From NCBI GenBank assembly GCA_964470645.1, contig CAYYDP010000002.1, positions 1 through 60,506 on the forward strand: a stretch of DNA of 60,506 nucleotides, read 5' to 3'. Numbering within the stretch: the stretch's first letter is position 1; every line of letters begins with the position of its first letter. This document shows, in pieces, positions 894 through 58,560 of the stretch. Position numbers and translations under genes: made by a program. The stretch comes from an uncultured Gammaproteobacteria bacterium (lineage in GTDB: Bacteria; Patescibacteriota; Patescibacteriia; CAYYDP01). The notes under the pieces were generated by a model, which ran no database searches, was not told where the DNA came from, and worked only from the letters and a program-made list of their open reading frames with translations.

Positions 894-3581
894 TCACGCT
901 TGTAGTTTCTCAAGCTTCTGTTTCGCTTCCTCAAGCTTCTTTTGCTCTGCGTTCACGATCGCTTCCGGAGCGCGGGCAACGAAGTCCTTATTTGCGAGTT
1001 TTGATTCGAGCAACGCAATGTAGTTCTGAAGCTCGAGGCGTTCTTTCTCTTTCTCTGCATCAGAAACCTCGGATGTTGGTACGTCCAAAAAGATCTCAAA
1101 TCCGCTTTCAATGATCTGCGGTTTCTCTAATGATGTTGATTCAACCAATGAAACCTTGGTCATCCGTTCAATTACTCCCTTATGCTGAAGCAGTAATTGC
1201 CGATATTGCTCTGATTGAATGTGGGCAGGCAACACCAATTTCGCATCAACACCCTGACCTGAACGAAAGTTTCTAATTGAGGAAATAATGGATTGAAGGA
1301 CCTGAAATTGTCGTATCTCGTTCTCGGTACACTTAACGGAACCGGCCTTGGGCCATTCTGCAACCATAAGCAGGCTTGTAGCTTGTAGCTTGTAGCTTGT
1401 AGCAAAAAATTGATAAATGTGTTCTGTTACGAACGGAATGAACGGATGCCAGAGTTTTAGGAGCGTAACCAAACAATGTGCCATGATCTTTTGGGTACCT
1501 TCTTTCAATTTCTCGTTTTGCATTTGGACTTTCGCGATTTCCAAATACCAATCAGCAAATTCATGCCAAGTAAATTCATACAAAGCTTCGGCTGCTTGCG
1601 AAAATTGATACCCCGAAAGGGCTTTAGTTACCGTCTGAATGAGGGTATTGAGATTGCTGAGTATGCGCTTATCGGCCAAGGTGGCGGGAATTGGCTCGCC
1701 TTGAACATCGAGTTGTTCAACACTTCCCATCACCAAACGAGTGATATTCCAAAGCTTATTAATAAAATGTTTATAATGCTCAACTCGCTCCTCAGAAAAC
1801 TTTGAGTCATTGCCTGGAGCAATCCCAATCACAAGACTTAAACGAAGCGCGTCAGTGCCAAATTTATCGCACGCCTCAATGGGGTCGATTCCATTCCCCA
1901 AGGATTTTGAAAACTTCCTCCCTTGTTCGTCTCGTAGCATCCCATGAATGTACACATCTTTAAACGGGATTTGATCGAGCGCGTACGTGCTCATGAGAAT
2001 CATTCGCGCCATCCAGAAAAACAATATTTCATATCCCATCTGCATCCAAGTTGTGGGATGATAGTTCTTCAGGTCGTCTGTTTGCTCAGGCCACCCAAGG
2101 GATGAAAACGTCCACGCCCCGGATGAAAACCACGTATCAAGGGTGTCTGGATCCTGTTCCCATCCATCTCCTTCCGGTTTCTCAATCCCAACATAAATAT
2201 CTTCACTTTGTTTCGGATTTCGGATTTCGGATTTCGGATTTTCCTGTTTACGATAGTAAACAGGAATTCTGTGCCCCCACCAAATTTGCCTTGAAATACA
2301 CCAATCCCGAAGATGATCAATCCAGCGCAAATAGGAATCGCGGAACCGCTCCGGCATGATGGTAATTTTCTGCCGCTCATCTCCTTTGTGCCCTGTCGTC
2401 ACCGCCTCACGCATCAAGTCTTTCAAGGTTTTCCCTCGTCCAGGAATCTCTTTATTCACCGCGATAAACCATTGCTCCATCGGAATGACCTCGACAACGT
2501 CTCCAAATCGATCCGATGTCCCGACGTTCTGAGTAATCTCTTCTTCGTTTTGCAGTAACCCTTCAGAGCGCAACCGGTCAACAAATTTTGCGCGCGCCTC
2601 CTCAACACTCAAACCCGCATATCCTTGACCTGCCTCTGCGGTCATCATTCCATCCGATCCAATCACCTGAACAAACCCAATTTCTTCAGCCGTACCCTTT
2701 CGTTTCGCGTACATCTCATGGTCAATTTGACTATGCGCTGGTGTTACGCCCAATGCACCGGTTCCAAATGAAGGGTCAACCTCTTGGTCGGCAATAACGC
2801 GAATCTTTAGCGGCTTTGAAGCGCCCACATCAACCGTAAAAGTTTTTCCAATGTACTGTTGGTACCGAGCGTCTTCTGGATGCACCGCAACGGCAGTGTC
2901 CCCAAGTTTTGTTTCGGGGCGAGTTGTTGAGATTGCGATGGGAAACTCTTTTGTATACGTAAACGTGAACAGCTTCGTCGATCGTTCAACGTACTCCAGC
3001 TCATCATCCGAACACGTTGATTGCCCTTTCACTGACCAATTCACCGTTCGGAATCCGCGATAAATGAGCCCGTCATGATACATCCGAATGAATAATTCAT
3101 GCACGGCTTTTGACCGTGGTTCATCAAATGTATACACAAGTCGAGACCAATCGTAGCTGGTTCCCATTTTTTTCATCTGACTTAGGATGGTTGACTTGGA
3201 CTTCTCTGCAAACTCCCGGATGATTTCCAAAAGCTTTTCGCGACCAAGTTCCTCGCGGGGATGCTTATACTTACCGGATTGAATAAGGTTTTTTTCGACC
3301 CTCGCCTGAGTAGCAACAGCCGCGTGATCTGTACCAGGGATCAAAAGAGCTTTTTTCCCAAGCATTCGTTGAAACCGAACTTCAATATCCATGATGGAAT
3401 TCTCAAGCGCATGTCCGAGATGAAGCACGCCGGTCACATTCGGCGGAGGGAGAGCAACAACAAACGGCTCTCTTCGGTCACCGGGTAGATTCTCGGGTGT
3501 AAAATACCCGCTTTCCTCCCACATCTTGTAGATTCCATCTTCGACCTCTTTTGGATTGTACGCTTTTGGCAACTCGTTCAT
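894..3581 (-). CDS. valS: Valine--tRNA ligase
   Basis: The long ORF carries class I aaRS signatures (PPPNVTGVLHLGHA as the HIGH region, KFSKSLGN as KMSKS) and a typical ValRS N-terminus, MNELPKAYNPKEVE. I prefer ATG at 3581, because the 8 extra codons of the track ORF overlap the U-tract of the leader terminator. Confidence 0.95.
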   Translation of the reverse strand: MNELPKAYNPKEVEDGIYKMWEESGYFTPENLPGDRREPFVVALPPPNVTGVLHLGHALENSIMDIEVRFQRMLGKKALLIPGTDHAAVATQARVEKNLIQSGKYKHPREELGREKLLEIIREFAEKSKSTILSQMKKMGTSYDWSRLVYTFDEPRSKAVHELFIRMYHDGLIYRGFRTVNWSVKGQSTCSDDELEYVERSTKLFTFTYTKEFPIAISTTRPETKLGDTAVAVHPEDARYQQYIGKTFTVDVGASKPLKIRVIADQEVDPSFGTGALGVTPAHSQIDHEMYAKRKGTAEEIGFVQVIGSDGMMTAEAGQGYAGLSVEEARAKFVDRLRSEGLLQNEEEITQNVGTSDRFGDVVEVIPMEQWFIAVNKEIPGRGKTLKDLMREAVTTGHKGDERQKITIMPERFRDSYLRWIDHLRDWCISRQIWWGHRIPVYYRKQENPKSEIRNPKQSEDIYVGIEKPEGDGWEQDPDTLDTWFSSGAWTFSSLGWPEQTDDLKNYHPTTWMQMGYEILFFWMARMILMSTYALDQIPFKDVYIHGMLRDEQGRKFSKSLGNGIDPIEACDKFGTDALRLSLVIGIAPGNDSKFSEERVEHYKHFINKLWNITRLVMGSVEQLDVQGEPIPATLADKRILSNLNTLIQTVTKALSGYQFSQAAEALYEFTWHEFADWYLEIAKVQMQNEKLKEGTQKIMAHCLVTLLKLWHPFIPFVTEHIYQFFATSYKLQATSLLMVAEWPKAGSVKCTENEIRQFQVLQSIISSIRNFRSGQGVDAKLVLPAHIQSEQYRQLLLQHKGVIERMTKVSLVESTSLEKPQIIESGFEIFLDVPTSEVSDAEKEKERLELQNYIALLESKLANKDFVARAPEAIVNAEQKKLEEAKQKLEKLQA
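1374..1403 (-). repeat. Heptanucleotide tandem repeat GCTTGTA x4.3 inside valS
   Basis: Plus strand reads gcttgta gcttgta gcttgta gcttgta gc. It is translated in frame as ATSYKLQATSYKLQATS. Confidence 0.95.
2211..2241 (-). repeat. Heptanucleotide tandem repeat TTTCGGA x4.4 inside valS
   Basis: Plus strand reads tttcgga x4 followed by ttt. It is translated in frame as NPKSEIRNPKSEIRNPK. Confidence 0.95.
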
Positions 3582-3603
3582 ATAATAATTGAAAATAAAA
3601 AAC

Positions 3604-3934
3604 ATCCCTTACCGAGGGACGTCGTAATCTGCGTAATCAGCGTTTTATCAGTGCTAATCTGCGTATGAGACGTGGTACCACCCTTGTTCACCATGAATCG
3701 CATAACACATAACTCGTATCATGGATCAAACAAAAGTTCCATGTTACGTGTTCCATGTTTAATGACCCACGGCCTTATTTCTGCTATTACGGGCTTACCC
3801 GGCGAATTCTACTCCCCCAATTTGCATCGATTCGCGTTATATCGGCGCGAATCAGCGTCGTGGGGTTTCTTTTCGCAAGTATCAAGAATATGACTGGTAT
3901 TCTTGGGAAGCTAACCTTCGCTCTTTTTATTTGT
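3604..3934 (-). promoter_or_regulatory. T-box riboswitch leader of valS
   Basis: The minus strand contains AACAAGGGUGGUACCACGUC (plus 3669-3689), matching the conserved T-box sequence. An antiterminator can form: AGGG/CCCU, a 7-nt bulge UGGUACC, then ACGUC/GACGU. It competes with a terminator, cgtccct-cggta-agggatg, followed by UUUUUUAUUUU at plus 3596-3622. The UGGU bulge fits a tRNA with discriminator A. A candidate Val codon GUA lies in GGGGGAGUAGAAUUCGC, but the specifier assignment is not secure. Confidence 0.8.
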
Positions 3935-3940
3935 ATAACC

Positions 3941-3969
3941 TATATACCACACCAAAATTGAAAAAACAA
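3941..3969 (-). promoter_or_regulatory. Sigma70-like promoter for the valS leader
   Basis: On the minus strand: TTGTTT (3964-3969), a 17-nt spacer, then TGgTATATA extended -10 (3941-3946). Confidence 0.5.
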
Positions 3970-7350: not shown

Positions 7351-7355
7351 CTAAT

Positions 7356-7503
7356 GTCATTGCGAGTGCATCCGAAGCAATCTTCCGCCGTCTCCTCCTT
7401 TTAAGATAAGAGGGGGTTGGGAGGAGTTATGAAGTTTGACGCGACAACCGCAAATGCAAACATTTGAAGATTGCTTCACTCACTCTGATTCGTTCGCAAT
7501 GAC
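7356..7503. repeat. MITE-like imperfect palindrome between convergent T1 and ksgA
   Basis: Terminal inverted repeats are gtcattgcga (7356-7365) and tcgcaatgac (7494-7503). An inner 12-bp pair is gaagcaatcttc (7374-7385) and gaagattgcttc (7466-7477). It encloses one copy of the GC-rich hairpin element (7388-7427). Confidence 0.7.
7388..7427 (-). repeat. GC-rich hairpin element, intergenic copy
   Basis: Sequence ccgtctcctcctt ttaagat aagaggggg ttgggaggagt has the same architecture and orientation as the intragenic copies at 8101, 12841 and 31634. Confidence 0.6.
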
Positions 7504-7506
7504 AAG

Positions 7507-8400
7507 CTATTTTGATTTTATGGCATCAGCCAATTTCACCCACTCTTCAAATTTCAAATTCTCCGAACGCAGATCGGGATCGATTCCTGACTGTTTTAAT
7601 AATGCTTCTGCCTGGCTTGGTTCGCTTCGCAAAAACGCAGCCAAGGTGTTGCGAAGTTTTTTGCGTCTGTTCGCGAAACACGCCTTTACAATTCTGATAA
7701 AATCTTCTTCTTGAATACCACGCTCCCGAAGCAACTTTGCTTTTGAATACATTTCACCCAGCGTAATCTTCACCAACGCGCTGTCAACTTTTGGCTGCGG
7801 TCTAAACGCGGTTTTTGGAACATACGCGAGCAACTCAACGCGAGCGCGCAACTGAGCAATGATCGTAAGAATTCCCTCACTCCCGTCTTTCCCAATCAAA
7901 CGTTCGGCAACTTCTTTTTGAATCATGAGAATTGCTTCCGTTGGTTGGGTTTCAATCGGTGAAAACAGGATATCTTGAACAATGGGCTTGGTAATGTAAT
8001 ACGGAATATTACCAAAAATCTTATAGGGTTTTGAAATATGTTTTTTGAGTTCCGTGGACTCCCGCAAATAATCCCCTTGGATAATCTTCAGACGCGCTTC
8101 TCCCCTACTCTGTCTCCCCCTTGGCAAGGGGGAGATGAAAGAGGGGGTCTTGACTTGATTCAAGAATTTGACCATTCTCTGGTCCTTTTCAACACTCCAC
8201 ACTTCTCTCACCTTCTCCACCAACGGCAGTGTAATCACCCCAAGTCCAGGACCAATTTCCAGTACAACGTCATCTTTTGAGAACTGGTCGAGAATAAAAT
8301 CAACCGTCAAATCATCAATCAAAAAATTCTGCCCCAGAGATTTCGTGGCAATGATTCCTTCTCGCGTCGCGAGTTTCAAAAGTTCAAGTGGATGGATCAT
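7507..8400 (-). CDS. rsmA: 16S rRNA (adenine1518/1519-N6)-dimethyltransferase
   Basis: Motifs GQNFLIDD and VLEIGPGLGVITLPL are present. It contains an in-frame insertion (TPSFISPLPRGRQSRGE) encoded by the hairpin element at 8101-8148. Confidence 0.9.
   Translation of the reverse strand: MIHPLELLKLATREGIIATKSLGQNFLIDDLTVDFILDQFSKDDVVLEIGPGLGVITLPLVEKVREVWSVEKDQRMVKFLNQVKTPSFISPLPRGRQSRGEARLKIIQGDYLRESTELKKHISKPYKIFGNIPYYITKPIVQDILFSPIETQPTEAILMIQKEVAERLIGKDGSEGILTIIAQLRARVELLAYVPKTAFRPQPKVDSALVKITLGEMYSKAKLLRERGIQEEDFIRIVKACFANRRKKLRNTLAAFLRSEPSQAEALLKQSGIDPDLRSENLKFEEWVKLADAIKSK
8101..8148 (-). repeat. GC-rich hairpin element inserted in frame in ksgA
   Basis: Sequence is tcccctactctg + tctccccctt ggc aagggggaga (10-bp stem) + tgaaagagggggt. 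Confidence 0.8.
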
Positions 8401-12363: not shown

Positions 12364-13191
12364 CTAATCGCATTTACTTCGATATATCGTAATATCGAAG
12401 TATGCTAGCTCTATCTTCTTCAACCCAAGATACCACTTCCGTTTCTTTTCTGGAAATTTTTCGATTGCATATCGGAGCATGGTTCGGGGCATACGGTGGG
12501 CATGTTTATTTAGAAATGATTCTAGACTTCTCACATCCTTCTTCCCCACTTCCCGGAGCATCCACCCAACGGCTTTGTGAATGAGATCATGTTCGTCGTT
12601 CAATAATACATTCGCGATGTTGATCGTATCGTCAAATTGTCCTTTTTGGATTAACGCGTTAGTTGAAACCATAGCAATCCTTCGCTCCCACAGATTTTCC
12701 GATCTTGCAAGACGGAACAGAACTTTCCGATCTTTCTGTTTAAGTAAATAATCACCAAGAATACATGGCGCTGACGTATCCACCAAATCCCAATTATTAA
12801 CGTACTTTGTATGCTTCAAATAGAACGTTACTAGTTCCGCTCTCCCTCTGTCCTCCCCTTTCGAAGGGGAGGTGAAGGAGGGGTATCGAATGTTCGATTT
12901 TCCATTTTTCATTTTCCTTTTTCCATAATCCTCATATTTCATCGCCAACATTTCAAGCGCCACAAACCGTTCTTCGTGAATCTTGCTTTTGAGTAGCGTT
13001 TGAATCTCTTCAAGGGTTATTTCTTTGTAATATCTCTTCGCCACCTTCCGTTGTTCTGGTACCTTGATTCCCAAAAATCTATCCCCTTCTCCGTACTCCC
13101 CTTTTCCCGTCTTAAAAAACCACGCCGAAGCGTGAGCGCGTTTTGAATTAATAAGTTTCCGAAGTTCCCGTTTAAGCATCGCGAGGTACAT
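12364..13191 (-). CDS. DNA alkylation repair protein (AlkD-like HEAT-repeat family)
   Basis: The N-terminus KRAHASAWFFKTGKGEYGEGDRFLGIKVPEQRKVAKRY and NNWDLVDTSAP are typical of the DNA_alkylation family. It carries an in-frame hairpin element. Confidence 0.7.
   Translation of the reverse strand: MYLAMLKRELRKLINSKRAHASAWFFKTGKGEYGEGDRFLGIKVPEQRKVAKRYYKEITLEEIQTLLKSKIHEERFVALEMLAMKYEDYGKRKMKNGKSNIRYPSFTSPSKGEDRGRAELVTFYLKHTKYVNNWDLVDTSAPCILGDYLLKQKDRKVLFRLARSENLWERRIAMVSTNALIQKGQFDDTINIANVLLNDEHDLIHKAVGWMLREVGKKDVRSLESFLNKHAHRMPRTMLRYAIEKFPEKKRKWYLGLKKIELAYFDITIYRSKCD
12841..12884 (-). repeat. GC-rich hairpin element inserted in frame in the AlkD-like gene
   Basis: Sequence is tctccctctgt + cctcccctt tcg aaggggagg (9-bp stem) + tgaaggaggggt. 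It encodes YPSFTSPSKGEDRGRAE. Confidence 0.8.
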
Positions 13192-14908: not shown

Positions 14909-15757
14909 TCACTCAGGAAGTCGAGTAATTTCTCTTTTGAGGATGTCTTTCATGTTAGCGCTTACGTCCTTCGTATACCGCTCGTCCTTGATGAACGCTT
15001 CAAGATCAATTCTGATACTTCCGGGGTCAGCTTTCTCGACCGCGTCCAACAGTTTCTGCTTCAATTCTTTCATGTTCTTGATCTCGGATAGGCACGCGAG
15101 ATTAGGCACGACCCCTTTGCTCAAATACCAAAGAAGATCAAAATAGTCACGCCCCTTGACCGTTGCGATCACGTTGCCAGCTTTGTCCGTTCTCTTCCAC
15201 CGGCGTTCGAGAACTGCTCGTATTTTTGTCGCCATGAGCGTTGGTAAATCAAATGTTCTCACCAAAAGCGACTTGTTCATTTTAAATAAGGGAATAATTT
15301 CAATCGGACAGTTCCGTAGGCTTCCATTATCTCGAAACACTTCAAGCTTGATCAGGAGAAGATCGGACTCGCTCGCGGTAGCTAACCCAAGTTCCCGAAG
15401 AAGCGGGAACTTCAGATATACTCGAAATTTCTGAATGAGACTGGTCGCCCTTATATCTGTTTTTTTGTTGATAAACTCTAACACATCTTCGGAAAACTGA
15501 CTCAGGGAAATTGAACCCTCAAGATCGATAAAATCAAGATCTTCCGACAGTCTAGGCAAACCATGGCAGTGCGCCAAGCATGAACCGCCGTAAAAAATCA
15601 ACTTGCCGTATCTTGGCTGTGAGTAAATGAAATCAAGCAGAACAATCTGCAGGTATTCTTTCAGGAGATTGCGCCGAAACACGATTTGATCGCTCTGCGT
15701 TTCTGCAACAATTCGACTGAGCGCTGGCTTAATCTCATTCATAACGTTTTGTATCAA
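14909..15757 (-). CDS. Nucleotidyltransferase AbiEii/AbiGii-family toxin (type IV TA / abortive infection)
   Basis: It carries the motif FYGGSCLAHCHGLPRLSEDLDFID, characteristic of the DUF1814/AbiEii family. Confidence 0.7.
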   Translation of the reverse strand: MIQNVMNEIKPALSRIVAETQSDQIVFRRNLLKEYLQIVLLDFIYSQPRYGKLIFYGGSCLAHCHGLPRLSEDLDFIDLEGSISLSQFSEDVLEFINKKTDIRATSLIQKFRVYLKFPLLRELGLATASESDLLLIKLEVFRDNGSLRNCPIEIIPLFKMNKSLLVRTFDLPTLMATKIRAVLERRWKRTDKAGNVIATVKGRDYFDLLWYLSKGVVPNLACLSEIKNMKELKQKLLDAVEKADPGSIRIDLEAFIKDERYTKDVSANMKDILKREITRLPE

Positions 15758-16397
15758 ATAGTGTTTTAAGAATTGTTTTCATTCGGTCAGTTCCTTCGCG
15801 CGCTGCGTGTGCTAAACACTCACGCCGAACCGCAGGAGATAGCTCTTCCACGTTAAGGCGCAACTCTTCAATCGCCTCAGGATTGTTGAGGTGTCGTTTA
15901 CGGAAGTACAGATAGTCAAACAACGCTTTGGCAGGAGAAGCCTTAAAAATTTGGAGATCGCCGTCCCGTTTTATTTCGAATCCTGTAAACAGTGTCGCGG
16001 TAATGCTCTGATACCGGAAACGACCAAACTGATTGTTTAACGTTGCGGTTTTATTGGTGGAAACCGCCGTAATCATAACGGGAAACTCGGTAATGATCCC
16101 GTGCTGATAAAGGACGTATTCGCCGCTCACATATGATGGGGAATAAAGTGCGCTTGCTAAAAATTCCACATACGACGCGATCCTTCCCGATTTTTCCAGC
16201 AAATGAACGTAGTCCTTCGTAACATAGGTTCCTTTTTTGAGCCTAACCACGCTGCCAGACCTCTGGTGACGAGAAAGGAGGATTTTGAGATACGTTTTAT
16301 TTGTTTCAACACTTGCCAAATCATCAAGCGTAAACAACGGTAGTGTTGCTACCATTCGTAAAATACGCTGAATTTTCGAATTTTCCTCATTTCTCAT
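15735..16397 (-). CDS. AbiEi-like antitoxin/transcriptional regulator
   Basis: It sits upstream of AbiEii, overlapping it by 23 nt, and has an N-terminal wHTH-like segment. The gene order is typical of abiEi-abiEii pairs. Confidence 0.55.
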   Translation of the reverse strand: MRNEENSKIQRILRMVATLPLFTLDDLASVETNKTYLKILLSRHQRSGSVVRLKKGTYVTKDYVHLLEKSGRIASYVEFLASALYSPSYVSGEYVLYQHGIITEFPVMITAVSTNKTATLNNQFGRFRYQSITATLFTGFEIKRDGDLQIFKASPAKALFDYLYFRKRHLNNPEAIEELRLNVEELSPAVRRECLAHAAREGTDRMKTILKTLFDTKRYE

Positions 16398-23263: not shown

Positions 23264-24490
23264 ATGTATATATCTCGTAATCTTGAAAAGACGCTCCTTT
23301 CCCTCGCTAAATCATTTCCCGTTCTCCTCCTGACCGGCCCGCGGCAGGTTGGGAAAACCACGCTTTTGGAACAGATAGGGAAACGCCTGCACTTGGGGTA
23401 TGTTTCGCTTGATGAATTCGAGATTCGCTCAAGCGCCCAACGGGACCCCGGGCTTTTTTTGCACCAACACCCTGCTCCGCTCATTATTGATGAAATCCAA
23501 TACGCGCCCGAGCTTCTTTCGTATATCAAAGTCCGAGTCGACCAGTCGCAACGCAAAGGTACATACTGGCTGACTGGTTCACAACAGTTCCATCTCATGA
23601 AAGGCGTTTCCGAATCTCTCGCTGGCAGAATCGCTATTGTCAATCTGCTCGGACTTTCCGTTGCAGAAGAAACACCAACAAAAAGACCAAAAAAACCTCT
23701 CATCCCTCTTGAAGCGTTCGCGCAACAATCATTCCCGCCACCGGACATTACCGCCCTATTCTCGCGCATTCTTCGCGGAAGTTATCCTCGCCTAGCGCTC
23801 CCTGATGCACCGCCACTCGAAACCTTTTATGGTTCCTATGTGCGAACGTACCTCGATCGGGATATTCGCGACTTGATGAGGGTATCGCTACTCCCCCAAT
23901 TCGAGACATTTATCCGCCTATGCGCAGCACGGACGGGTCAACTTCTCAATATCGCGGATCTGGCGCGTGACGCGGGAGTCAGTGCTCCCACAGCCCGCGA
24001 GTGGCTCAATCTTTTAGAAACAAGCGGACAGATTTATTTCCTTCGCCCATATTACCGGAACATCAGCAAACGATTGGTAAAATCTCCAAAACTGTATTTT
24101 CTTGATACCGGACTCGTGAGCTACCTTACTGGATGGAAGACGGCAGAGACCGCACAGCACGGCGCCATGGCCGGCGCGCTGTTTGAAACATTTATCGTTT
24201 CTGAACTGCTCAAATACTACTGGAATCAAGGTATGGAAGCGCCGATTTGGCACTTTCGGACAAAAGAAAAACAAGAAGTCGATATTCTAATTGACCAGGA
24301 TGGAATTCTATATCCCATTGAAATCAAGCTCGCCACTCGCATCAATGAACGAGATCTTGCGGGAATGAAGCAGTTGAAAAAAGCAACCGTTTCCTCCGGA
24401 TACGGCGCGGTGGTGTGCGCAACCGCGACCCCTTACGCGATTGATACATTGACTCAAGCCATTCCCTATACTTGTATTGAGCGATGGTAG
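23264..24490 (+). CDS. AAA-family ATPase with DUF4143-like C-terminal domain
   Basis: It has the Walker A motif LLLTGPRQVGKTTLL. The architecture is shared with 52500-53687. Confidence 0.7.
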   Translation: MYISRNLEKTLLSLAKSFPVLLLTGPRQVGKTTLLEQIGKRLHLGYVSLDEFEIRSSAQRDPGLFLHQHPAPLIIDEIQYAPELLSYIKVRVDQSQRKGTYWLTGSQQFHLMKGVSESLAGRIAIVNLLGLSVAEETPTKRPKKPLIPLEAFAQQSFPPPDITALFSRILRGSYPRLALPDAPPLETFYGSYVRTYLDRDIRDLMRVSLLPQFETFIRLCAARTGQLLNIADLARDAGVSAPTAREWLNLLETSGQIYFLRPYYRNISKRLVKSPKLYFLDTGLVSYLTGWKTAETAQHGAMAGALFETFIVSELLKYYWNQGMEAPIWHFRTKEKQEVDILIDQDGILYPIEIKLATRINERDLAGMKQLKKATVSSGYGAVVCATATPYAIDTLTQAIPYTCIERW

Positions 24491-28082: not shown

Positions 28083-28388
28083 ATGAAAGAAGTCCATATT
28101 CCTCAAGAATTGAATCGTTTTTTATGGGATACGAAGCCGGGTGATTTGGATACACAAACGCACAAATCGTTTATCATCGAACGGTTGTTAGAGGAAGGAA
28201 ACCGCCAGGCCGTACATTGGGTTTTAAACGAGTTCTCGCCAAATGATATAGAGGATGTTGTCAGCTCATCTCGTCGAATCCGCTTGAAAACCGCGTTATT
28301 CTGGAAAAATCGCCTAGGGATAACCAAACCCATTCTATGCATGCAGAAACCCTCTACCCCGACACCCGCCACGCCCTGGAGACATTAG
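28083..28388 (+). CDS. Putative antitoxin partner of the AbiEii-like nucleotidyltransferase
   Basis: It is a small ORF immediately upstream of, and overlapping, the NTase gene. The motif LWDTKPGDLDTQTHKSFIIERLLEEGN recurs in such pairs, from memory. The 3' end is uncertain. Confidence 0.45.
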   Translation: MKEVHIPQELNRFLWDTKPGDLDTQTHKSFIIERLLEEGNRQAVHWVLNEFSPNDIEDVVSSSRRIRLKTALFWKNRLGITKPILCMQKPSTPTPATPWRH

Positions 28389-28957
28389 CGAAGGAGAAAA
28401 TGGTTGACGGACTTTATCTCGCTGGGGGAACCGCAACAGCACTTCGGCTTGGACATCGTAAGAGCATTGATCTTGACTGGTTCTCGTCAAAACCATTTTC
28501 AGTTGATGAATTGCTTCAGAAGTTAATTCGCGTAGCCCCATTCGACGTGGCGATCAAAGAAACAAAAACACTCACAGGTCAATGGCTATCTACCCGAGTT
28601 GAATTTTTCGAATACCCATATCCTCTTCTTGAAACAACTGAGACATGGAACGGTGTCAATATAGCCGGATTGCAAGACATCGCGTTGATGAAGCTCATCG
28701 CCATCTCCGATCGCGGGAGCAAAAAAGACTTCATTGATCTTTTCGAGATTTGCAAGACCGCCCTGACATTGGAGTCGCTCTTCTCGCTTCTCCCGAAAAA
28801 GTTTCCTGGTATCAACTTCGATCCATATCATTTGCTTAAATCTCTCGTCTATTTTGAAGATGCGGAACGTGATCCAAATCCCGATCTGATCAAAAACATC
28901 TTATGGAAAACGGTCAAAGAGTTCTTTCTTGATCAAGCAAGGCTGATTAAGTTATAA
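28337..28957 (+). CDS. AbiEii/DUF1814-like nucleotidyltransferase (short form)
   Basis: LYLAGGTATALRLGHRKSIDLDWFS resembles the AbiEii NTase motif. Confidence 0.6.
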   Translation: MHAETLYPDTRHALETLAKEKMVDGLYLAGGTATALRLGHRKSIDLDWFSSKPFSVDELLQKLIRVAPFDVAIKETKTLTGQWLSTRVEFFEYPYPLLETTETWNGVNIAGLQDIALMKLIAISDRGSKKDFIDLFEICKTALTLESLFSLLPKKFPGINFDPYHLLKSLVYFEDAERDPNPDLIKNILWKTVKEFFLDQARLIKL

Positions 28958-30689: not shown

Positions 30690-31934
30690 TCAGCTACCCA
30701 ACCTCAGTCCTGGATCACGTTCAAGTCTTGAGACGTTTTTCACAAATTGTTTTCGCTTTACCCTATGAAATGCCGCAATCGCGATCATCGCGGCATTATC
30801 GCCAAGCAACTTTTTATCGATTGGATAAACGACCTCTATTTCAAATGGTTTCATTGCTTTACGAATTTCAGAACGGACAAGTTTATTCGCAACCACACCA
30901 CCACCGAGCAACAGCCTTGTAACCTGTAACTTGTAACCTGTAACTTGTAACTTTTTAATAGCCAATGTGGTTTTCTGTACCAAATGTTCAACAGCGGCTC
31001 GTTGAAATGAGGCACATAAATCACAAATTAGTTTTTTGGTGAATTTTCCTTTGGGAGAGATCTTTTGCAACGCGTACAATACTGAAGTTTTGAGCCCAGA
31101 ATAACTGAAGTCACATGTTTTAGACTTTTCGAGCGGCACAGGGAATGGATATTTGTGGGGATTCCCCTCTTTAGCAAGCTCTTCCACAATCGGTCCTCCC
31201 GGGTATCCAAGACTGAGCATTTTCGCAACCTTATCAAACGCCTCACCAACTGCATCATCGAGTGTTTCACCAATGATTTCATATTTTCCATGGTTTTTCA
31301 TAAGCACGAGTTCCGTGTGACCACCTGAGATGAGAAGACACAAGACTGGAAAATCCGAAGCACGGAGCACGAAATCCAAATTGGACTTGAGTTTTGAATT
31401 ATTGGTTTGTTTCGAATTTCGAATTTCGAATTTCGAAATTACTCCAACTCGTTTTGCGAAGTTGGAGTAGATGTGTCCTTCCATATGATTCACTGCAACC
31501 AAGGGTTTTTTATACAACCTTGCGAGTTCTTTTGATTTCTCAACGCCGATTTGTAACGCTGGCGCAAGCCCCGGCCCGTAAGTTACAGCGAAGACATCTA
31601 CATCTTGTAACCCGAAACTTGTAGCTTGTAACTTACCCTGCCCCCTCCTTACGAAGGAGGGGATTGAGGAGGTGCTTTTGGATTTGTAACTTGATATTTG
31701 TTTGTGATTTGGGATTTGTAATTTGGAAATTGAAATATTGGCGCGTTTGACTGCTTCCTGGATCACCGCGTCAATACGTTCCTGGTGCGCCCTCATGGCG
31801 ATCATTGGAACAACGCCTCCATATTTCTTATGAAGTTCCACCTGACTTGAAATGACATTGGAAAGAATCACGTCATTCCAAGTAATCGCAACCGAGGTCT
31901 CGTCGCACGATGTGTCTATTGCTAAAATCAACAT
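30690..31934 (-). CDS. tsaD: tRNA N6-adenosine threonylcarbamoyltransferase
   Basis: MLILAIDTSCDETS, VTYGPGLAPALQIGV, VNHMEGHIY and GGGVVANKLVR are present. It is about 75 aa longer than usual because of three in-frame repeat insertions. Confidence 0.9.
   Translation of the reverse strand: MLILAIDTSCDETSVAITWNDVILSNVISSQVELHKKYGGVVPMIAMRAHQERIDAVIQEAVKRANISISKLQIPNHKQISSYKSKSTSSIPSFVRRGQGKLQATSFGLQDVDVFAVTYGPGLAPALQIGVEKSKELARLYKKPLVAVNHMEGHIYSNFAKRVGVISKFEIRNSKQTNNSKLKSNLDFVLRASDFPVLCLLISGGHTELVLMKNHGKYEIIGETLDDAVGEAFDKVAKMLSLGYPGGPIVEELAKEGNPHKYPFPVPLEKSKTCDFSYSGLKTSVLYALQKISPKGKFTKKLICDLCASFQRAAVEHLVQKTTLAIKKLQVTGYKLQVTRLLLGGGVVANKLVRSEIRKAMKPFEIEVVYPIDKKLLGDNAAMIAIAAFHRVKRKQFVKNVSRLERDPGLRLGS
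30916..30953 (-). repeat. Heptanucleotide tandem repeat (CTTGTAA/CCTGTAA x5) inside tsaD
   Basis: Plus strand reads cttgtaa cctgtaa cttgtaa cctgtaa cttgtaa ctt. It encodes KLQVTGYKLQVTR. Confidence 0.9.
31410..31437 (-). repeat. Heptanucleotide tandem repeat TTTCGAA x4 inside tsaD
   Basis: Plus strand reads tttcgaa x4. It encodes FEIRNSK. Confidence 0.9.
31604..31740 (-). repeat. Composite in-frame insertion in tsaD: heptamer repeats + GC-rich hairpin element + degenerate heptamers
   Basis: The first part is cttgtaa cccgaaa cttgtag cttgtaa (31604-31631). The hairpin element follows: taccctg + cccctcctt acg aaggagggg + attgaggaggtg (31634-31674). The last part is 7-nt periodic gatttgt aacttga tatttgt ... 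(31681-31738). Confidence 0.85.
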
Positions 31935-47153: not shown

Positions 47154-48242
47154 TCAGACCACCATATCCGACCATTCAATCGTTCGCTCATTCTCTCGCT
47201 TCCCATGTCCAATCTTCACCCAAATGATCTTTGCCTCGTCGGAGTATTTCTTTAGGATATTTGTTACCTTCTCTGCCCATTCGATGGCGAACACTGCGCC
47301 GGAGTCAATAAGTTTGGCAAATCCAAGGTCCAAAAATTCTTGATCCGAAAACATGCGCCAGGTGTCGATGTGAATGAGTTTATATTTTTTGCTCCCATGC
47401 TTGAACACATAGTCTCGTTCGAGAATAAACGTGGGAGAATTCACCCGTTCTTTCACCCCGAGCGCCCGCGCAACTCCCTTCGTAAACTGTGTCTTCCCTG
47501 CACCCAAATTCCCTTGAAGCGCAAAAATGACCGACTTGAATCCAAGATAGTGTTTGTATTGATTCATGAGTTTCTCTCCCAGCGCAATGGTTTCCTCCTG
47601 TGATTTCGTGTTTTGGTGATTTCGTGTTTTTGTAAACTTGATTTCTCCCTGCCTCAAGATCGTCGCGTCGTTGAGTGTGGTATCTACCACAGTCGAAGGT
47701 TCGCGAATGGGCAGTTGCCCCGCATCCAAAACCAAATCAATAAGTTTCTTTTGTTTCGCCGAGATGTTATTGAAAATATCCTTAATGTGGTACGGGCGTT
47801 TTTTATACGACGCATTAGCAGACGTGGAAGTAATAGGTTTCCCAAATGTTTTCACGATTTTCAGAATTAACGGATAATCCGGAATCCTGATCCCGAGCGT
47901 TCCCAGTTCTGATTCTACTCCTTTCGCAACATTCCCCTTGCTCTTTGAAACAACTGTTACGGGTCCTGGGAGCAATGTCCGATAGATATTCTCTGCTGTT
48001 TTGTTGATGCGAACAAATTTTGCCGCCATATTTTTATCCGCGCAGGCAATCGAAAGCGGCTTCCCTTCCCGACGAGCTTTATACTTCAAAAGTTTATTCA
48101 CTGCTTCCTGATTTGTCGCATCAACCCCGATTCCATACAGTGTCTCTGTTGGATACACAACAAGTCCCCCCTCCTTGAGGACTTCAATGGTTTTCTTAAC
48201 CACTTCCGATTCTTTCGTTTTTTTGAGATTCAGGGTGAGCAT
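47154..48242 (-). CDS. Fusion of L-threonylcarbamoyladenylate synthase (TsaC/Sua5 YrdC domain) and TsaE ATPase
   Basis: The N-terminal YrdC motifs are VVYPTETLYGIGVDA and KGKPLSI. The C-terminal TsaE P-loop is LQGNLGAGKTQFTKGVARALGV, followed by SPTF. Confidence 0.85.
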   Translation of the reverse strand: MLTLNLKKTKESEVVKKTIEVLKEGGLVVYPTETLYGIGVDATNQEAVNKLLKYKARREGKPLSIACADKNMAAKFVRINKTAENIYRTLLPGPVTVVSKSKGNVAKGVESELGTLGIRIPDYPLILKIVKTFGKPITSTSANASYKKRPYHIKDIFNNISAKQKKLIDLVLDAGQLPIREPSTVVDTTLNDATILRQGEIKFTKTRNHQNTKSQEETIALGEKLMNQYKHYLGFKSVIFALQGNLGAGKTQFTKGVARALGVKERVNSPTFILERDYVFKHGSKKYKLIHIDTWRMFSDQEFLDLGFAKLIDSGAVFAIEWAEKVTNILKKYSDEAKIIWVKIGHGKRENERTIEWSDMVV

Positions 48243-50453: not shown

Positions 50454-50454
50454 A

Positions 50455-52499: not shown

Positions 52500-53687
52500 C
52501 TAGATCATGCTCGCGGGTATAAAACCCAATTGTTTTGAAAACGACTTTGAGATAACGTAGGTATGTTTGAGTTTCAACGATTTTGCCACAGATTGAGCCT
52601 TCGCGTAATCTTGCGGGACCGCGGTCTGCTTCACCTCAAGAGCAACCGATTCTTTCGGAAGCACAAAATCAATTTCAATCCCAGTCCTCCGTTGATAATA
52701 ATGGATAGGCTCATAGGATGGTTTCAGGTTTTGAAAAACAGCATTTTCCAAAAGCTGGCCGTCTCCGACGTTTGCGAAATGATTCACGATCCCAACATCG
52801 CAGGCATACAGCTTCTTTGTCCCACTCACCTCTCGATCACGGTTCCGGCTAAAGGGAGTAATGAGATGGATAAAATACGTTCCTTCAAGAAACGACAGAT
52901 ACGAGTATACCGTTTCCCGGGAAACCCCTACTTCAACCGATAATTTGCTGATCTCTAGCTTTGAACCAACCCGCTGCAAAAGCAATAGCAACAAATCCCT
53001 CAGAGCGGTAAGATTTTTCACATCCGCCAACGTCTTCACGTCTTTTTCAAAATAGGATTTAAAAATATCGTTCAATCGGATCTTTTTTTGCTCCCAGGTT
53101 TTGGCAAGTACCACAGACGGAAACCCACCAAACTGGAGATACTCATCGTATAACTTTTTTGATCGCTCGAATTGGACTTCGGTTTTTTGTACGTGCTTTT
53201 CCGGGAACGAACCGCCCCACGGCATGGGAACGCGCTTAAACTCAAGAAACTCCTGAAACGTTAATGGATAGAGTTCAAAAACCGCTTTTCGTCCTGCGAG
53301 ACTCTCAGGAAATACATTCTTAAAATAATAACTGGACGAACCAGTAAGAAAAAACTTAACATCATGATGATCTTGCAAATACTTGATCGCCTTTACAATA
53401 TTTGGCATTGCCTGAATTTCATCAAGAAAAACATACGCCTTTTTCTTTGGGCTGATTCCGTACGACGCGAGGTTTGCCAAGATATTATTGTAATCGGTTT
53501 CCTCAAAAATCTTTTGCTCAACCGGGTTCTCAATGTCCAAAAATACTTTGTTATCACTCTTAATCTCGTCAAAGATTTGGCGATAGAGGGTTGTTTTCCC
53601 AACCTGTCGCATACCAGTGAGAACAATAATTTCTTTGGTCGATAACTGCTTTCTCAGCTTTGGTAATAATGATCGTTGAAATATCAT
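52500..53687 (-). CDS. AAA-family ATPase with DUF4143-like C-terminal domain
   Basis: It has the Walker A motif IIVLTGMRQVGKTTLY and is a paralog of 23264-24490. Confidence 0.7.
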   Translation of the reverse strand: MIFQRSLLPKLRKQLSTKEIIVLTGMRQVGKTTLYRQIFDEIKSDNKVFLDIENPVEQKIFEETDYNNILANLASYGISPKKKAYVFLDEIQAMPNIVKAIKYLQDHHDVKFFLTGSSSYYFKNVFPESLAGRKAVFELYPLTFQEFLEFKRVPMPWGGSFPEKHVQKTEVQFERSKKLYDEYLQFGGFPSVVLAKTWEQKKIRLNDIFKSYFEKDVKTLADVKNLTALRDLLLLLLQRVGSKLEISKLSVEVGVSRETVYSYLSFLEGTYFIHLITPFSRNRDREVSGTKKLYACDVGIVNHFANVGDGQLLENAVFQNLKPSYEPIHYYQRRTGIEIDFVLPKESVALEVKQTAVPQDYAKAQSVAKSLKLKHTYVISKSFSKQLGFIPASMI

Positions 53688-54618: not shown

Positions 54619-54622
54619 AGTT

Positions 54623-55467: not shown

Positions 55468-56313
55468 ATGACGATTGCACTGAATCTATCTATGGAACCA
55501 TATCTCCCTCCAATCAATAATCAAGAATCAGAATTTGACTTCGAAACTCGTGGAACTCACTATTCTGACGCACACGAACAAATGCCATGGGTACGTGGGG
55601 AAGAAATCAACCAAATCCTTGTGTCTGTTGGTTGTACCGGACCATTGGTTGGGAAAACAATACTCGATTTTGCATGCGGTTCTGGAACCGTTACTATCCC
55701 ATTATCTATCGCAGTTGGGTCGGGGGGTGTCGTATATGCCGCCGATGACTCTGAAACGAATTTTCAAAGACTCAAGAAAAAAGCAGGATCCGAACTCCCG
55801 ATCACTATTCTCCTTTTGAAACCAAATGAAAGGCTCAACGTACAATCGTCTTGCGTTGATGTGGTTGTCTCGCTTGCGGGGATGCATCATGTCCCAAATG
55901 ATGCGCGCCAAGGCATCTTCGTAGAATTTTATCGAGTATTGAAACCAGGCGGCTATGTAGTGATTGGCGATGTGTTGGATCAACGACCAGTACAATCTTA
56001 CTTTGACAACGTGGTTGATAAAGTTTGTTCGACGGGACATCTTCACCGTTTTTTTGATAAAACCCAAATCCAGGAATTATGCGGACAAAGTGGTCTACTT
56101 CTGGAACGGTTCAATGAGGTGTCCACACCTTGGATATTCAATAACGAGAAAGAGGCGGGTGCCTTTCTCCGGACAATTCACGATGCAAAAAAACATTTCA
56201 CACCAGAGTACTGTCTGGCGGAAGCAAAAAAATACCTCGGATGTTCAAATGACGGCGGAATATTCAAACTGAATTGGTCACTCTTTTTCATGACAGCGAA
56301 AAAACAACAATGA
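55468..56313 (+). CDS. Class I SAM-dependent methyltransferase
   Basis: It carries motif I ILDFACGSGTVTIPLSIAVGSGGVVYAADDSE. Confidence 0.75.
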   Translation: MTIALNLSMEPYLPPINNQESEFDFETRGTHYSDAHEQMPWVRGEEINQILVSVGCTGPLVGKTILDFACGSGTVTIPLSIAVGSGGVVYAADDSETNFQRLKKKAGSELPITILLLKPNERLNVQSSCVDVVVSLAGMHHVPNDARQGIFVEFYRVLKPGGYVVIGDVLDQRPVQSYFDNVVDKVCSTGHLHRFFDKTQIQELCGQSGLLLERFNEVSTPWIFNNEKEAGAFLRTIHDAKKHFTPEYCLAEAKKYLGCSNDGGIFKLNWSLFFMTAKKQQ

Positions 56314-57338
56314 TATCATCGAATCTTGATCAGCACGAAAAAATAATTCGCCTTTCAGACCCAAAATCGGGATTACGAGGGTTCATCGCTATTCACAACA
56401 CATCCCACGGACCCGCAACAGGGGGTACGCGCATGATGCCCTATACATCCGAACAAGACGCACTCAATGACGCACTCAAGCTCGCTCGAGCGATGACCTA
56501 CAAATGTGCGCTCGCCGGAGTTCCCTACGGTGGCGGGAAAGGGGTGATCATTGGCGATCCAAAAAAAGATAAGACACAGAAATTGCTACAATCCTACGCT
56601 CAAATCGTAAATTCCCTCAATGGTATATTCACCACCGGCGAAGATGTGGGGATTACACGTGAAGATGCGGAGATCATGACAAAAACATCTCCGTACATTA
56701 ACGGCTTCAGCAAATCAACTGATCCGTCACCTTTTGCCGCCCTGAGTGTGTTTTCTTCAATAAAGAGCGCGGTCAAAATAACCAATAATGAATCGCTTCG
56801 ATATAAAAAAATCGCCGTCAAAGGAATTGGAAAGGTTGGATCTGAACTTATTCGGTTACTCATAAAAACTGGAGCTAAACTCTATGCGGCAGACATTGAT
56901 TCAAAAATAATTACAAAGATACGTCGAGAATTCCCTACAGTAGGGATCGTAGAGACTTCTTCCATTCATCAATTGCCCGTTGACGTCTTTGCTCCCTGTG
57001 CACTGGGAAATGAAATTGCCAAAGAAAACATCTCTGAGATTAAGGCGAAAATAATCTGCGGTAGCGCAAACAACCAACTCTCATCAGAAGCCATCGGAGA
57101 CCAGTTATTTCATCGCGGGATATTGTATATTCCTGACTATCTCGCAAACGCAGGAGGATTGATCAATGCGATCGACACGCGCGAACCGGGTGGGTATCAA
57201 AAAAAACGAGTAATGAGGCGAATAAATTTCCTTCAAAACACATTGCGTACCATTCTTAAGGCGTCGAATATATCCAATATTCCTCCTTATAGAATCGCAG
57301 ATCGTATTGCTGAAGAGAAGATTTCGGAATCAAAATAA
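56310..57338 (+). CDS. Glu/Leu/Phe/Val dehydrogenase family (leucine/valine dehydrogenase-like)
   Basis: GPATGGTRMMPY, AGVPYGGGKGVIIGDP and VKGIGKVGSELIRLL (a Rossmann motif) are present. Its start overlaps the upstream stop as ATGA. Confidence 0.85.
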   Translation: MISSNLDQHEKIIRLSDPKSGLRGFIAIHNTSHGPATGGTRMMPYTSEQDALNDALKLARAMTYKCALAGVPYGGGKGVIIGDPKKDKTQKLLQSYAQIVNSLNGIFTTGEDVGITREDAEIMTKTSPYINGFSKSTDPSPFAALSVFSSIKSAVKITNNESLRYKKIAVKGIGKVGSELIRLLIKTGAKLYAADIDSKIITKIRREFPTVGIVETSSIHQLPVDVFAPCALGNEIAKENISEIKAKIICGSANNQLSSEAIGDQLFHRGILYIPDYLANAGGLINAIDTREPGGYQKKRVMRRINFLQNTLRTILKASNISNIPPYRIADRIAEEKISESK

Positions 57339-57440
57339 CTCTATCGTTGGATACACAACAAGTCCTCCCTTTTTCAAGACTTCAATCGTTTTCTTAATCA
57401 CCTCCGATTCTTTCGTTTTTTTGAGATTCAGGATGAGCAT
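57339..57440 (-). repeat. Duplicated tsaC 5' terminus, copy r4 (longest)
   Basis: About 100 nt align with 48143-48242 at close to nine tenths identity by eye. It translates as MLILNLKKTKESEVIKKTIEVLKKGGLVVYPT. It begins right after the dehydrogenase stop. Confidence 0.9.
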
Positions 57441-57480
57441 ATATTCACTTCAGTATGACATGGTGGTATACTGATCATAT

Positions 57481-58560
57481 ATGTACGATCTTGTTTGCGT
57501 TGGAGATACCACGCTCGATACCTTTTTAAAGGTTCAAGACGCTGCGGTGCATTGCGATCTCAAAAGCAAAAGCTGTGAGCTCTGTTTCAAATACGGAGAA
57601 AAGATTGCCGTTGATGAACTCAGACAAAACCCCGGCGGCAACTCTGCAAACGTTGCTGTTGGAACGGCAACACTTGGAGTCAAAACCGCACTCTACGCGA
57701 TCATTGGGGACGACGATATTGGGCAGAACGTAAAACGGATGATAGGCGAACGCAAGGTTGACACGAAGTACTTGTTGACCAACAAAGGCAAACCGACGAA
57801 TTATTCGACAATTATTAGCTTCAAGGGTGAACGAACGATCCTGGAGATGAAATATCCCGCACACCTAACGTTCTCAACATTCCCAACAACCGATTGGGTA
57901 TATCTTTCTTCTCTTAAACAAGACCCCAAAAGTGTGTACGAGTCACTCGTTCGGTTAAAAAAGAAGATGGGATTCAAGATCGCCTTTAACCCGGGAATGT
58001 TTCAGCTCACTCACCCTTCAAACGATATCGTAACGTTTCTTCCAAATGTAGATGTTCTTATTGTGAATAAAGAAGAAGCGGAGCTATTAGTCCGTAAAGT
58101 CGAAAGTCTCAAGTCGAAAGTCTCATTAAGGAAGTCCAACGACCGCCTCAGATTGACAACGCTACAAGCTACCCGCCTCGCGTCGACAAGCGACAGCGAG
58201 TCGAGGCGGGCAAGCTACAAGCTACAAGCTCGTACTCGTGGTCTCGTCTTCATCACTGATGGTCCCAACGGAGCATATGCGTTTGATGGAGAACGCATGG
58301 TTCACTGCAACACATTTCCTGCACCAAACGTTGTTGACCGAACAGGGGCGGGCGACGCGTTTTCTTCTGGCGTGGTCGCGGGACTCACAAATGAAGTCAG
58401 CTTTCCAGAGGTTATTCGTTGGGGCATGGCTAATTCTGCGGCAGTACTCAAAGAGATCGGCCCCCAAAACGGGCTATTGAATATCTCTGAAATAAGGCGA
58501 ATATTAGCCAATGTAAAGATTTTTCCCGACCTGTTGAAAAAATCTTTACAGAATAGTTGA
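57481..58560 (+). CDS. PfkB-family carbohydrate kinase (ribokinase-like)
   Basis: The N-terminal VCVGDTTLD, GGNSANVAVG and the C-terminal DRTGAGDAFSSGVVAGL are present. It contains an in-frame repeat insertion of about 50 aa. Confidence 0.8.
   Translation: MYDLVCVGDTTLDTFLKVQDAAVHCDLKSKSCELCFKYGEKIAVDELRQNPGGNSANVAVGTATLGVKTALYAIIGDDDIGQNVKRMIGERKVDTKYLLTNKGKPTNYSTIISFKGERTILEMKYPAHLTFSTFPTTDWVYLSSLKQDPKSVYESLVRLKKKMGFKIAFNPGMFQLTHPSNDIVTFLPNVDVLIVNKEEAELLVRKVESLKSKVSLRKSNDRLRLTTLQATRLASTSDSESRRASYKLQARTRGLVFITDGPNGAYAFDGERMVHCNTFPAPNVVDRTGAGDAFSSGVVAGLTNEVSFPEVIRWGMANSAAVLKEIGPQNGLLNISEIRRILANVKIFPDLLKKSLQNS
58097..58232 (+). repeat. Composite in-frame insertion in the PfkB kinase
   Basis: It has aagtcgaaagtctc x2 (58097-58124) and gctacaagct (58161-58170). 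A hairpin cccgcctcg ... cgaggcggg follows (58172-58210), then caagctacaagctacaagct (58211-58230). The last part is the same AGCTACA heptamer as in valS, read on the coding strand, and encodes SYKLQATSYKLQA. Confidence 0.9.

Follow-up and report, generated by a model that had tools for sequence, protein, structure and literature searches.

The tracts considered here are arrays of 7-nt units and small GC-rich palindromes that lie within genes of a 60,506-nt stretch of DNA (contig CAYYDP010000002.1 of assembly GCA_964470645.1, positions 1 to 60,506; hereafter the window). The contig was deposited as an uncultured Gammaproteobacteria bacterium and is placed by GTDB in the Patescibacteriota, part of the candidate phyla radiation (CPR). 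The tracts probably belong to families of tiny dispersed repeats, each specific to one genome, whose copies would be translated as protein loops. In kind they resemble the short tandemly repeated repetitive (STRR) sequences and small dispersed repeats (SDR) of cyanobacteria, and in behaviour the Rickettsia palindromic elements (RPE). Sequence comparison indicates that the arrays are more than isolated microsatellites and belong to dispersed repeat families, given the reuse of units at unrelated sites, the common terminus AAACAAA, the existence of a palindrome family and a common order of parts.

Period 7 was the sole enriched period when arrays of periods 4-15 were counted in the window and compared with shuffled sequence, with five arrays that cover 167 bases, where shuffles gave 0.1 on average and never more than 1. 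Tandem Repeats Finder (TRF) and direct reading agree on every heptamer tract listed in an earlier note, made from the letters alone, in the genes valS, tsaD and a PfkB-family kinase gene. These three open reading frames (ORFs) are intact, and all the listed tracts lie within them. The unit that the note considered common to the three unrelated genes is also there: each carries, in coding sense, AGCTACA or the form AGTTACA, which differs by one base, and SYKLQAT-type peptides result. The note had missed an array with a hairpin in an AlkD-like gene (12838-12926) and a hairpin in ksgA (8096-8152). In coding sense, the units form two groups, A (AAGCTAC, AAGTTAC and AGGTTAC; AAGYTAC) and B (AAATCCG, AAATTCG and AAGTCGA; AAATNNN), which are linked by intermediate units such as AAATTAC. 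Group A is present in valS, tsaD (twice) and the kinase gene, and group B in valS, tsaD (twice), the kinase gene and the AlkD-like gene. The window arrays hold 4.3, 4.4, 4.0, 5.4, 3.9 and about 4.5 units, and all crisp ones are genic. The genes concerned and the tracts within them are:

894-3605, minus strand: valS (valyl-tRNA synthetase, 903 aa), with two arrays; E=2e-169 to the T. thermophilus ValS structure 1gax, 81% identical to the ortholog on a relative's contig (L081)
1374-1403, minus strand: A-type array in valS, GCTTGTA x4.3 (coding AAGCTAC), peptide ATSYKLQATS; TRF 100% matches
2207-2241 (TRF 2211-2241), minus strand: B-type array in valS, TTTCGGA x4.4 (coding AAATCCG x4 plus terminal AAACAAA), peptide NPKSEIRNPKQ; TRF 100% matches
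12364-13191, minus strand: AlkD-like gene for DNA alkylation repair, with a composite insert; Pfam PF08713, E=3e-64, with about 27 residues beyond the profile
12890-12926, minus strand: degenerate B-type array in the AlkD-like gene, GGAAAAA GGAAAAT GAAAAAT GGAAAAT; TRF period 7, x4.9, 81% matches
30690-31934, minus strand: tsaD (414 aa, vs about 347 aa in orthologs), with three insert sites; aligned with 80 orthologs
30916-30953, minus strand: tsaD site 3, A-type array, CTTGTAA/CCTGTAA x5.4 (coding AAGTTAC/AGGTTAC), peptide KLQVTGYKLQVT; TRF, 100% at period 14
31406-31440 (TRF 31410-31437), minus strand: tsaD site 2, B-type array, TTTCGAA x4.0 (coding AAATTCG x4 plus terminal AAACAAA), peptide SKFEIRNSKQ; TRF 100%
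31604-31738, minus strand: tsaD site 1, composite insert of 40 aa, absent from 80 orthologs; in coding sense, a B-like array ending in AAACAAA (31697-31738), a palindromic element (31628-31680, core 31642-31662) and an A-type array (31604-31634)
57481-58560, plus strand: PfkB-family sugar kinase, with a composite insert at about aa 205-246; ribokinase structures have 16 residues where the kinase has 42
58096-58125, plus strand: B-type array in the kinase gene, AAGTCGA/AAGTCTC x3.9, peptide KVESLKSKVS; TRF, 100% at period 14
58161-58171 and 58211-58230, plus strand: AGCTACA array in the kinase gene (about 4.5 units in total), split by a 39-nt GC hairpin (58172-58210; fold z=-4.9)

Alignments of TsaD, ValS and PfkB with their orthologs bear out the description of the tracts as in-frame insertions. 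The tsaD tracts correspond to three stretches of columns, at aa 69-108, aa 162-178 and about aa 328-334, that are missing from nearly all of the 80 orthologs, the C-terminal valS tract (1374-1403) to a 6-aa insertion relative to 1gax, and the KsgA tract likewise to columns absent from orthologs. An AlphaFold (AF2) model of TsaD built from 58 homologs (mean predicted local distance difference test score, pLDDT, of 88; predicted template modelling score 0.86) is confident overall but renders the first two inserts as coil with pLDDT of 41-62, the range being 49-62 at site 1 and 41-57 at site 2. Together, the alignments and the TsaD model point to in-frame insertion into permissive surface loops that are modelled as disordered. 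The insertion of RPE type, in frame and at permissive positions, is thus matched by intact ORFs, segments absent from orthologs and low-confidence coil. The peptides predicted from the frame include FATSYKLQATSLL, IPSFVRRGQGK and ATSYKLQATSLL. It is very improbable that the inserts escape translation through programmed bypassing, as in T4 gene 60 and the GC hairpins of mitochondrial 'byp' elements, or through RNA removal. GC-rich hairpins between direct repeats do stand within the coding sequence of tsaD and the kinase gene, as such a process might suggest. However, every insert is in frame and free of stops, in four genes of the window, three L081 orthologs and dozens of alleles of the Nitrospirota gene bioA described below, and this weighs against bypassing since bypassed or spliced elements need neither property and bypassed ones usually do contain stops.

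Unrelated sites share more than a period. One unit class recurs at no fewer than four unrelated sites within 60 kb; the chance that two independent arrays match in cyclic unit is about 5e-4 for an exact match and about 1e-2 with one mismatch. AAACAAA is the terminal unit of five B arrays, which occupy four non-orthologous sites and come from three related genomes (valS, tsaD site 1 and tsaD site 2 of the window, pfkB of L081 and tsaD of the CPR locus L083). With a probability of 0.008 for CAAA given a preceding AAA, the joint probability for the five arrays is about 4e-9. Composite inserts also agree in architecture. In coding sense, tsaD site 1 and the kinase insert both run from a B array through a spacer and a GC hairpin to an A array, and the AlkD-like insert runs from a B array to a hairpin, with its degenerate array directly upstream of the latter. 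The two arrays of tsaD site 1 are degenerate by TRF (31604-31634 and 31698-31735), and the kinase array downstream of the hairpin is exact (CAAGCTA x2.9 at 58211-58230). The proposal that hairpins and heptamers belong together is supported by the kinase hairpin, which splits an AGCTACA array, and by the part order common to tsaD site 1 and the kinase; the tsaD, AlkD-like and kinase hairpins adjoin heptamer arrays, the ksgA hairpin does not.

The ksgA, AlkD-like and tsaD hairpins constitute a family of palindromes with a C-run and a G-run. In addition to the tsaD and kinase hairpins (fold z=-3.2 and -4.9, respectively), the window contains the following host gene and copies:

7507-8400, minus strand: ksgA/rsmA (16S rRNA dimethyladenosine transferase), hairpin host; E=3e-33 to RsmA structures
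8096-8152, minus strand: palindromic element in ksgA, two-tier hairpin, in frame, peptide TPSFISPLPRGRQSRG; 49 bits with covariance model R1 (training copy), fold z=-3.1
12838-12890, minus strand: palindromic element in the AlkD-like gene, peptide YPSFTSPSKGEDRGR; R1 44 bits (training copy), fold z=-3.3
7378-7433, minus strand: weak intergenic palindrome copy; R1 17.9 bits, E=0.015, outside the training set

Three strong copies and one weak copy of the family are present in 60 kb, with element lengths of 25-57 nt and fold z-scores against shuffles of about -3; with the kinase hairpin included, the scores run from -3.1 to -4.9. The ksgA, AlkD-like and tsaD palindromes are homologous, including a leader and trailer outside the stem, and lie in the same orientation and frame, yielding peptides of PSF...RG type (TPSFISPLPRGRQSRG, YPSFTSPSKGEDRGR and IPSFVRRGQG). 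In ksgA and the AlkD-like gene, the copies may consist of two tiers of hairpin, one nested in the other. Direct repeats flank the hairpins in tsaD (AAGTTACAA) and in the kinase gene (CAAGCTAC). Model R1, built from eight hairpin copies, found no match in 546 kb of other CPR loci. A generic test for GC hairpins near arrays was weakly positive, with 12 observed against 5.4 expected in metagenome loci and 1 against 0.27 in CPR loci; the family-specific covariance model is more informative. The weak copy at 7378-7433 occupies the middle of an inverted repeat that is 150 nt long and single-copy (7355-7504) between a convergent TrmB-like ORF and ksgA, which may be a bidirectional terminator or a relic resembling a MITE (miniature inverted-repeat transposable element).

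Relatives of the window organism show the history of several sites. By its TsaD relatives, the contig falls in the CPR/Patescibacteria; the nearest TsaD in the genome collection is about 50% identical, and a large protein collection contains two at 66-67%. Contig L081 carries pfkB, tsaD, ksgA and valS, with protein identities to the window of 64%, 67%, 69% and 81%, respectively. Codon alignments reveal a decayed period-7 tract of near-equal length in L081 at each array site. At tsaD site 3, for example, L081 reads GTCACAC GTTCCAA GTTGCGT GTTACGA where the window has crisp GTTACAA/GTTACAG units, and at the kinase B site it reads AAATTCC AAATGAC AAATCTC AAATTCC AAACAAA. The valS site at 2207-2241 likewise corresponds to a decayed period-7 tract, and the C-terminal valS site to a different period-14 tract of the same length. 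It follows that the arrays predate the split of the two lineages and have been re-homogenized or replaced in place, and the sequence record suggests that the tracts are old at most sites. The ksgA and kinase hairpins are absent from L081, which has a 10-codon gap and a 30-nt gap at the respective positions. These differences appear lineage-specific and are most simply read as gains in the window lineage. Other CPR lineages possess their own inserts in the same TsaD loops, with heptamer arrays in L021, L024, L034, L039, L050 and L083. Imperfect palindromes of about 100 nt also occur in frame in tsaD of L018, L020, L023, L025 and L035 (Roizmanbacteria-like; about 3175-3350 in each), in the loop of window site 1, with AAAATTTT outer stems and GC-rich inner stems; none of the five matched the window hairpin model.

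The presence of decayed, similar-length period-7 tracts at every orthologous site is what would be expected if slippage made and homogenized each array at its own site, the hairpins being unrelated local palindromes. The same holds for units that differ between lineages at a single site (the valS C-terminal region and bioA) and for the commonness of arbitrary-unit arrays. Such purely local microsatellites are nevertheless an unlikely source of the tracts. They would not account for one unit at four or more unrelated sites, an identical AAACAAA at four non-orthologous sites, or the leader and trailer outside the stem that the ksgA and AlkD-like hairpins share, and stepwise growth in valS or tsaD would produce lethal frameshifts. 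Errors of assembly or sequencing are an extremely unlikely source. The DNA does derive from a metagenome assembly, and apparent indels between L081 and L082 proved to be NN gaps. However, the arrays span at most 38 nt, below read length, the ORFs are intact, and independent assemblies from other samples have arrays at orthologous sites, as do many bioA contigs. Contigs L081 and L082 had been considered near-identical strains differing by indels of 66, 69 and 42 nt, which was rejected as these are scaffold gaps in L082, a JGI contig; the gaps, at 808-809, 1752-1753 and 12435-12436, alter gene calls, and L082 is otherwise identical to L081.

Persistence of inserts in the same TsaD loops across several CPR lineages could also be explained if they were selected functional modules, in which peptides (heptad-like SYKLQAT linkers) or mRNA hairpins had been recruited, for instance for partner binding or translational pausing. 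A 7-nt DNA period does give a 7-residue peptide period, and the hairpins are thermodynamically stable. This explanation is improbable, as conservation resides in the DNA, where units are perfect, rather than in the peptide: orthologous inserts encode unrelated peptides, each of the three frames is used to read one and the same DNA unit, the model shows the inserts as disordered, and arrays and hairpins occur in non-coding DNA too.

Orientation and frame are better explained by what survives than by how the tracts arise. Counted over 606 kb of CPR DNA, genic arrays carry the A-rich strand in sense by 16:1, and this holds for all seven arrays with open antisense frames. The earlier note had offered TAG in every antisense frame as a possible reason for the uniform orientation. 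For the A unit, antisense is indeed closed in all three frames, but stops cannot be the whole reason, because the B units (TCCGAAA and TTCGAAA) are stop-free in antisense yet oriented alike. GC skew keeps one sign throughout the window, while the arrays flip with their host genes, so that orientation follows the coding strand and not the direction of replication. A tie of the arrays to genes was not borne out. Within the CPR loci, where about 90% of DNA is coding, 18 of 25 arrays are genic and 7 lie outside long ORFs, as do about 64% of the AGYTACA arrays in metagenomes, none of which is in an antisense ORF. The arrays are therefore not gene-specific, and the in-frame, one-orientation pattern marks survivors of selection and is not evidence of targeted in-frame insertion. 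We infer that uniform orientation and frame reflect a survival filter, whereby the A-rich strand would encode loop-compatible peptides rich in Lys, Asn, Ser, Glu and Gln, and the T-rich strand hydrophobic ones.

The genes valS and tsaD are essential and single-copy. That 7-nt slippage toggles such genes as phase-variable contingency loci is very unlikely, even though the unit is not a multiple of three and the arrays lie inside ORFs. Arrays contain only about four units, are located mid-gene in loops, and are in frame in all orthologs and relatives. The doubt previously expressed about classic phase variation was therefore well founded, on the same grounds of essential genes, about four units per array and orthologs that are all in frame.

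Similar arrays are common in metagenome and viral sequence. At least 120 metagenome stretches of widely differing GC content contain AGYTACA x3 (median 4.1 units); among these A-array loci, no relatives of the window organism were found. Among viral sequences, AGYTACA x3 was found in 29 contigs, two composition-matched control heptamers in 28 and 91 stretches, and the B unit in 36. The idea that AGYTACA is a special unit, suggested by its many metagenome matches, was hence discarded, since control heptamers are equally frequent on viral contigs; no unit is special, and short heptamer arrays are common as a class. Across about 3 Mb of loci, exact bystander arrays of period 7, whatever their unit, number 22 at 4.0 units and 17 at 4.5 but fall sharply to 3 at 5.0, and periods 5, 6 and 8 collapse beyond 3 units; for period 7, length thus seems to be capped at about 31 nt. 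Inverted pairs of AGTTACA arrays around 70-85 nt occur in L133 (1081-1202), L143 (946-1086) and L148 (4940-5079), with folding energies of -57 to -60 kcal/mol; these are MITE-like elements from unrelated organisms, with heptamer arrays as terminal inverted repeats.

The hairpin family adjoins heptamer arrays in the unrelated metagenome loci L088, L123, L134, L135, L157 and L184. A cyanobacterial origin of the hairpin-bearing loci was considered and rejected, with HIP1 (GCGATCGC) enriched in 0 of 204 loci and L157 belonging to Nitrospirota. In bioA of L157, a hairpin and a TCAGCCT array lie in frame (2264-2360). BioA homologs at 75-87% identity range from 457 to 515 aa, and this one site is responsible for the length range (L157 and L204-L207). 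Its states include:

P0187: exact ACTCGTC x4.4 array
P0122: CCTTCAG-type array in decayed form, hairpin absent
P0121: P0122-type array together with a hairpin of 42 nt
P0133: a single hairpin
P0127: two hairpins

Nitrospirota bioA reproduces the anatomy of the window inserts independently in another phylum. Filled and empty orthologous sites are accordingly available in both groups: the ksgA and kinase hairpins are absent from L081, and bioA has 0, 1 or 2 copies in a single loop that is a hot spot and also bears lineage-specific heptamer arrays.

Several known systems share features with the window tracts. STRR heptamer arrays were reportedly described in heterocystous cyanobacteria by Mazel et al. 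in 1990, and Elhai et al. are said to have found in 2008 that SDR hairpins of 21-27 nt are embedded in tandem heptamer arrays and nest in one another in Nostocaceae. The window arrays resemble STRR in their 7-nt units, short arrays of about four units and reuse of a few units at many loci. They differ in setting, as STRR are mainly intergenic whereas the crisp window arrays are all genic and in frame; in the CPR loci, the genic share approximates coding density. Heptamer families with the units GGGAATC and GGGGA(C/T)T in Xanthomonas and Nostoc also comprise about four units, are mainly intergenic and under-represented in ORFs, and have had their four-unit preference attributed to G-quadruplex (G4) formation (Rehm et al. 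2015, PMC4692102). In contrast to these families and to STRR, the window units are A-rich, unable to form G-quadruplexes and located in a CPR host. The limit of about four units thus holds for non-G4 units, and the published G4 explanation is not general.

SDR elements have been reported only from Nostocaceae (PMC5861425). The tracts are like them in having tiny hairpin repeats in or next to heptamer arrays and relatives with filled and empty sites, but occur in Patescibacteria and Nitrospirota, in frame in housekeeping genes, and are likened to SDR by description. RPE are translated palindromic repeats that lie in frame in unrelated housekeeping genes (Ogata et al. 2000, reviewed in PMC10969869 and PMC3184786). 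The window elements share this in-frame, translated occurrence at permissive positions of unrelated housekeeping proteins; RPE are about 105-150 bp (three to five times longer), lack heptamer arrays and are specific to Rickettsia, whereas the window elements are array-associated. Repetitive extragenic palindromic (REP) elements, which are extragenic with a GTAG or CGTC tag (PMC3733652), are similarly multicopy, GC-rich imperfect palindromes of 20-40 nt. Unlike REP elements, which are mobilized by REP-associated tyrosine transposases (RAYT; IS200/IS605-like TnpA), the window copies are genic, show GTAG only in the ksgA copy and have no RAYT among the window ORFs. Neither terminal inverted repeats nor consistent target-site duplications, by which MITEs of 100-400 bp are recognized, were found at the window inserts. 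Phase-variable simple sequence repeats share a unit inside an ORF that is not a multiple of three, and differ from the tracts, which sit in loops of essential genes, have few units and show no out-of-frame alleles. No comparable repeats in Patescibacteria were found in the literature searched, coverage of which was incomplete and is not proof of absence. By analogy, the tracts would be best classed as STRR/SDR-like repeats that behave like RPE in CPR and Nitrospirota, in a coding setting.

In the proposed reading as dispersed repeats, two kinds of element are distinguished, namely heptamer arrays of about 30 nt, of the forms (AAATNNN)3-4 + AAACAAA and (AAGYTAC) x about 4, and the palindrome with a C-run and a G-run, 25-50 nt long. 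Copies persisting in essential genes would be those that keep the frame, lack stops and encode a hydrophilic peptide, with the A-rich strand in sense. Arrays turn over in place, being crisp in the window and decayed in a relative, sometimes with a different unit, and hairpins are gained and lost between relatives, landing in or beside arrays. Growth by single units in essential genes would pass through frameshifted intermediates; crisp four-unit arrays consequently need either 21-nt steps or copying or conversion from another array, and the common AAACAAA terminus favours copying.

Several points weigh against dispersed, translated repeat families. No transposase, RAYT or reverse transcriptase was found among the window ORFs, and target-site duplication showed no consistent pattern at hairpin junctions in ksgA, the AlkD-like gene and bioA. 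The family copies are known from 60 kb of the genome, and the decay of arrays at orthologous sites is also compatible with concerted evolution that is purely local. Arbitrary control heptamers are as frequent as the A unit on viral contigs, so any-unit arrays arise readily. Covariation in the hairpin stems is weak evidence, since stems made of a C-run and a G-run can be slid by one column, and a control slid by +1 column scores similarly. Translation of the inserts as loops is suggested by frame and stop statistics, and the likeness to SDR draws on what Elhai et al. reportedly described in 2008.

A broader version of this proposal is rather doubtful, though it would have wide reach. It holds that array and mini-hairpin may form a single class of non-autonomous mobile elements, ultra-small at 30-50 nt and spread across phyla, that are copied in trans as preformed modules into or next to arrays. 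If so, crisp arrays of about four units could form in essential genes with no frameshifted intermediate; the limit of about 4.5 units, whatever the unit, and the repeated remodelling of the TsaD and BioA loops would be explained as well. Such elements would be an unrecognized generator of disordered protein loops in streamlined genomes.

Other features of the window were recorded alongside the repeats. Upstream of valS, in non-coding DNA, are 9-nt repeats (CGTAATCAG; 3623-3643) and 7-nt repeats (GTTCCAT; 3736-3759) that may have a regulatory role. Between 6607 and 55402 there are 12 ORFs for TrmB-family helix-turn-helix regulators and six for Peripla_BP_6 solute-binding proteins, often adjacent; a paralog expansion of this extent is striking and, in a CPR genome of small size, unusual. 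Two AbiEii/AbiEi type IV toxin-antitoxin loci (14909-16397, minus strand; 28337-28957, plus strand) and two AAA_14/DUF4143 ATPase genes (23264-24490, GC-rich; 52500-53687) are also present. An ORF with fused Sua5/TsaC and TsaE (47154-48242, minus strand), fused in L081 too, contains an exact 16-nt direct repeat (47600-47630). GC-rich hairpins occupy tRNA-gene spacers at 59322-59363 and 59450-59509. A tRNA with a 2-base anticodon called by ARAGORN (59189-59274) was dismissed, as the Rfam alignment identifies it as a normal type-II tRNA-Leu(GAG) in which a single pair of the anticodon stem is mismatched.

Genomes of CPR bacteria, small and densely packed with genes, are usually called repeat-poor. 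The window tracts suggest that a genome of this sort can retain tiny repeats where they lie in essential genes as translated loops. Heptamer arrays and mini-hairpins are associated outside cyanobacteria, in both Patescibacteria and Nitrospirota. This recurrence across phyla, together with the putative copying, raises the significance of the tracts. For the annotation of metagenome-assembled genomes, they inflate protein lengths and produce spurious low-complexity "domains". At the TsaD and BioA loops, sites range naturally from empty through filled to doubly filled.

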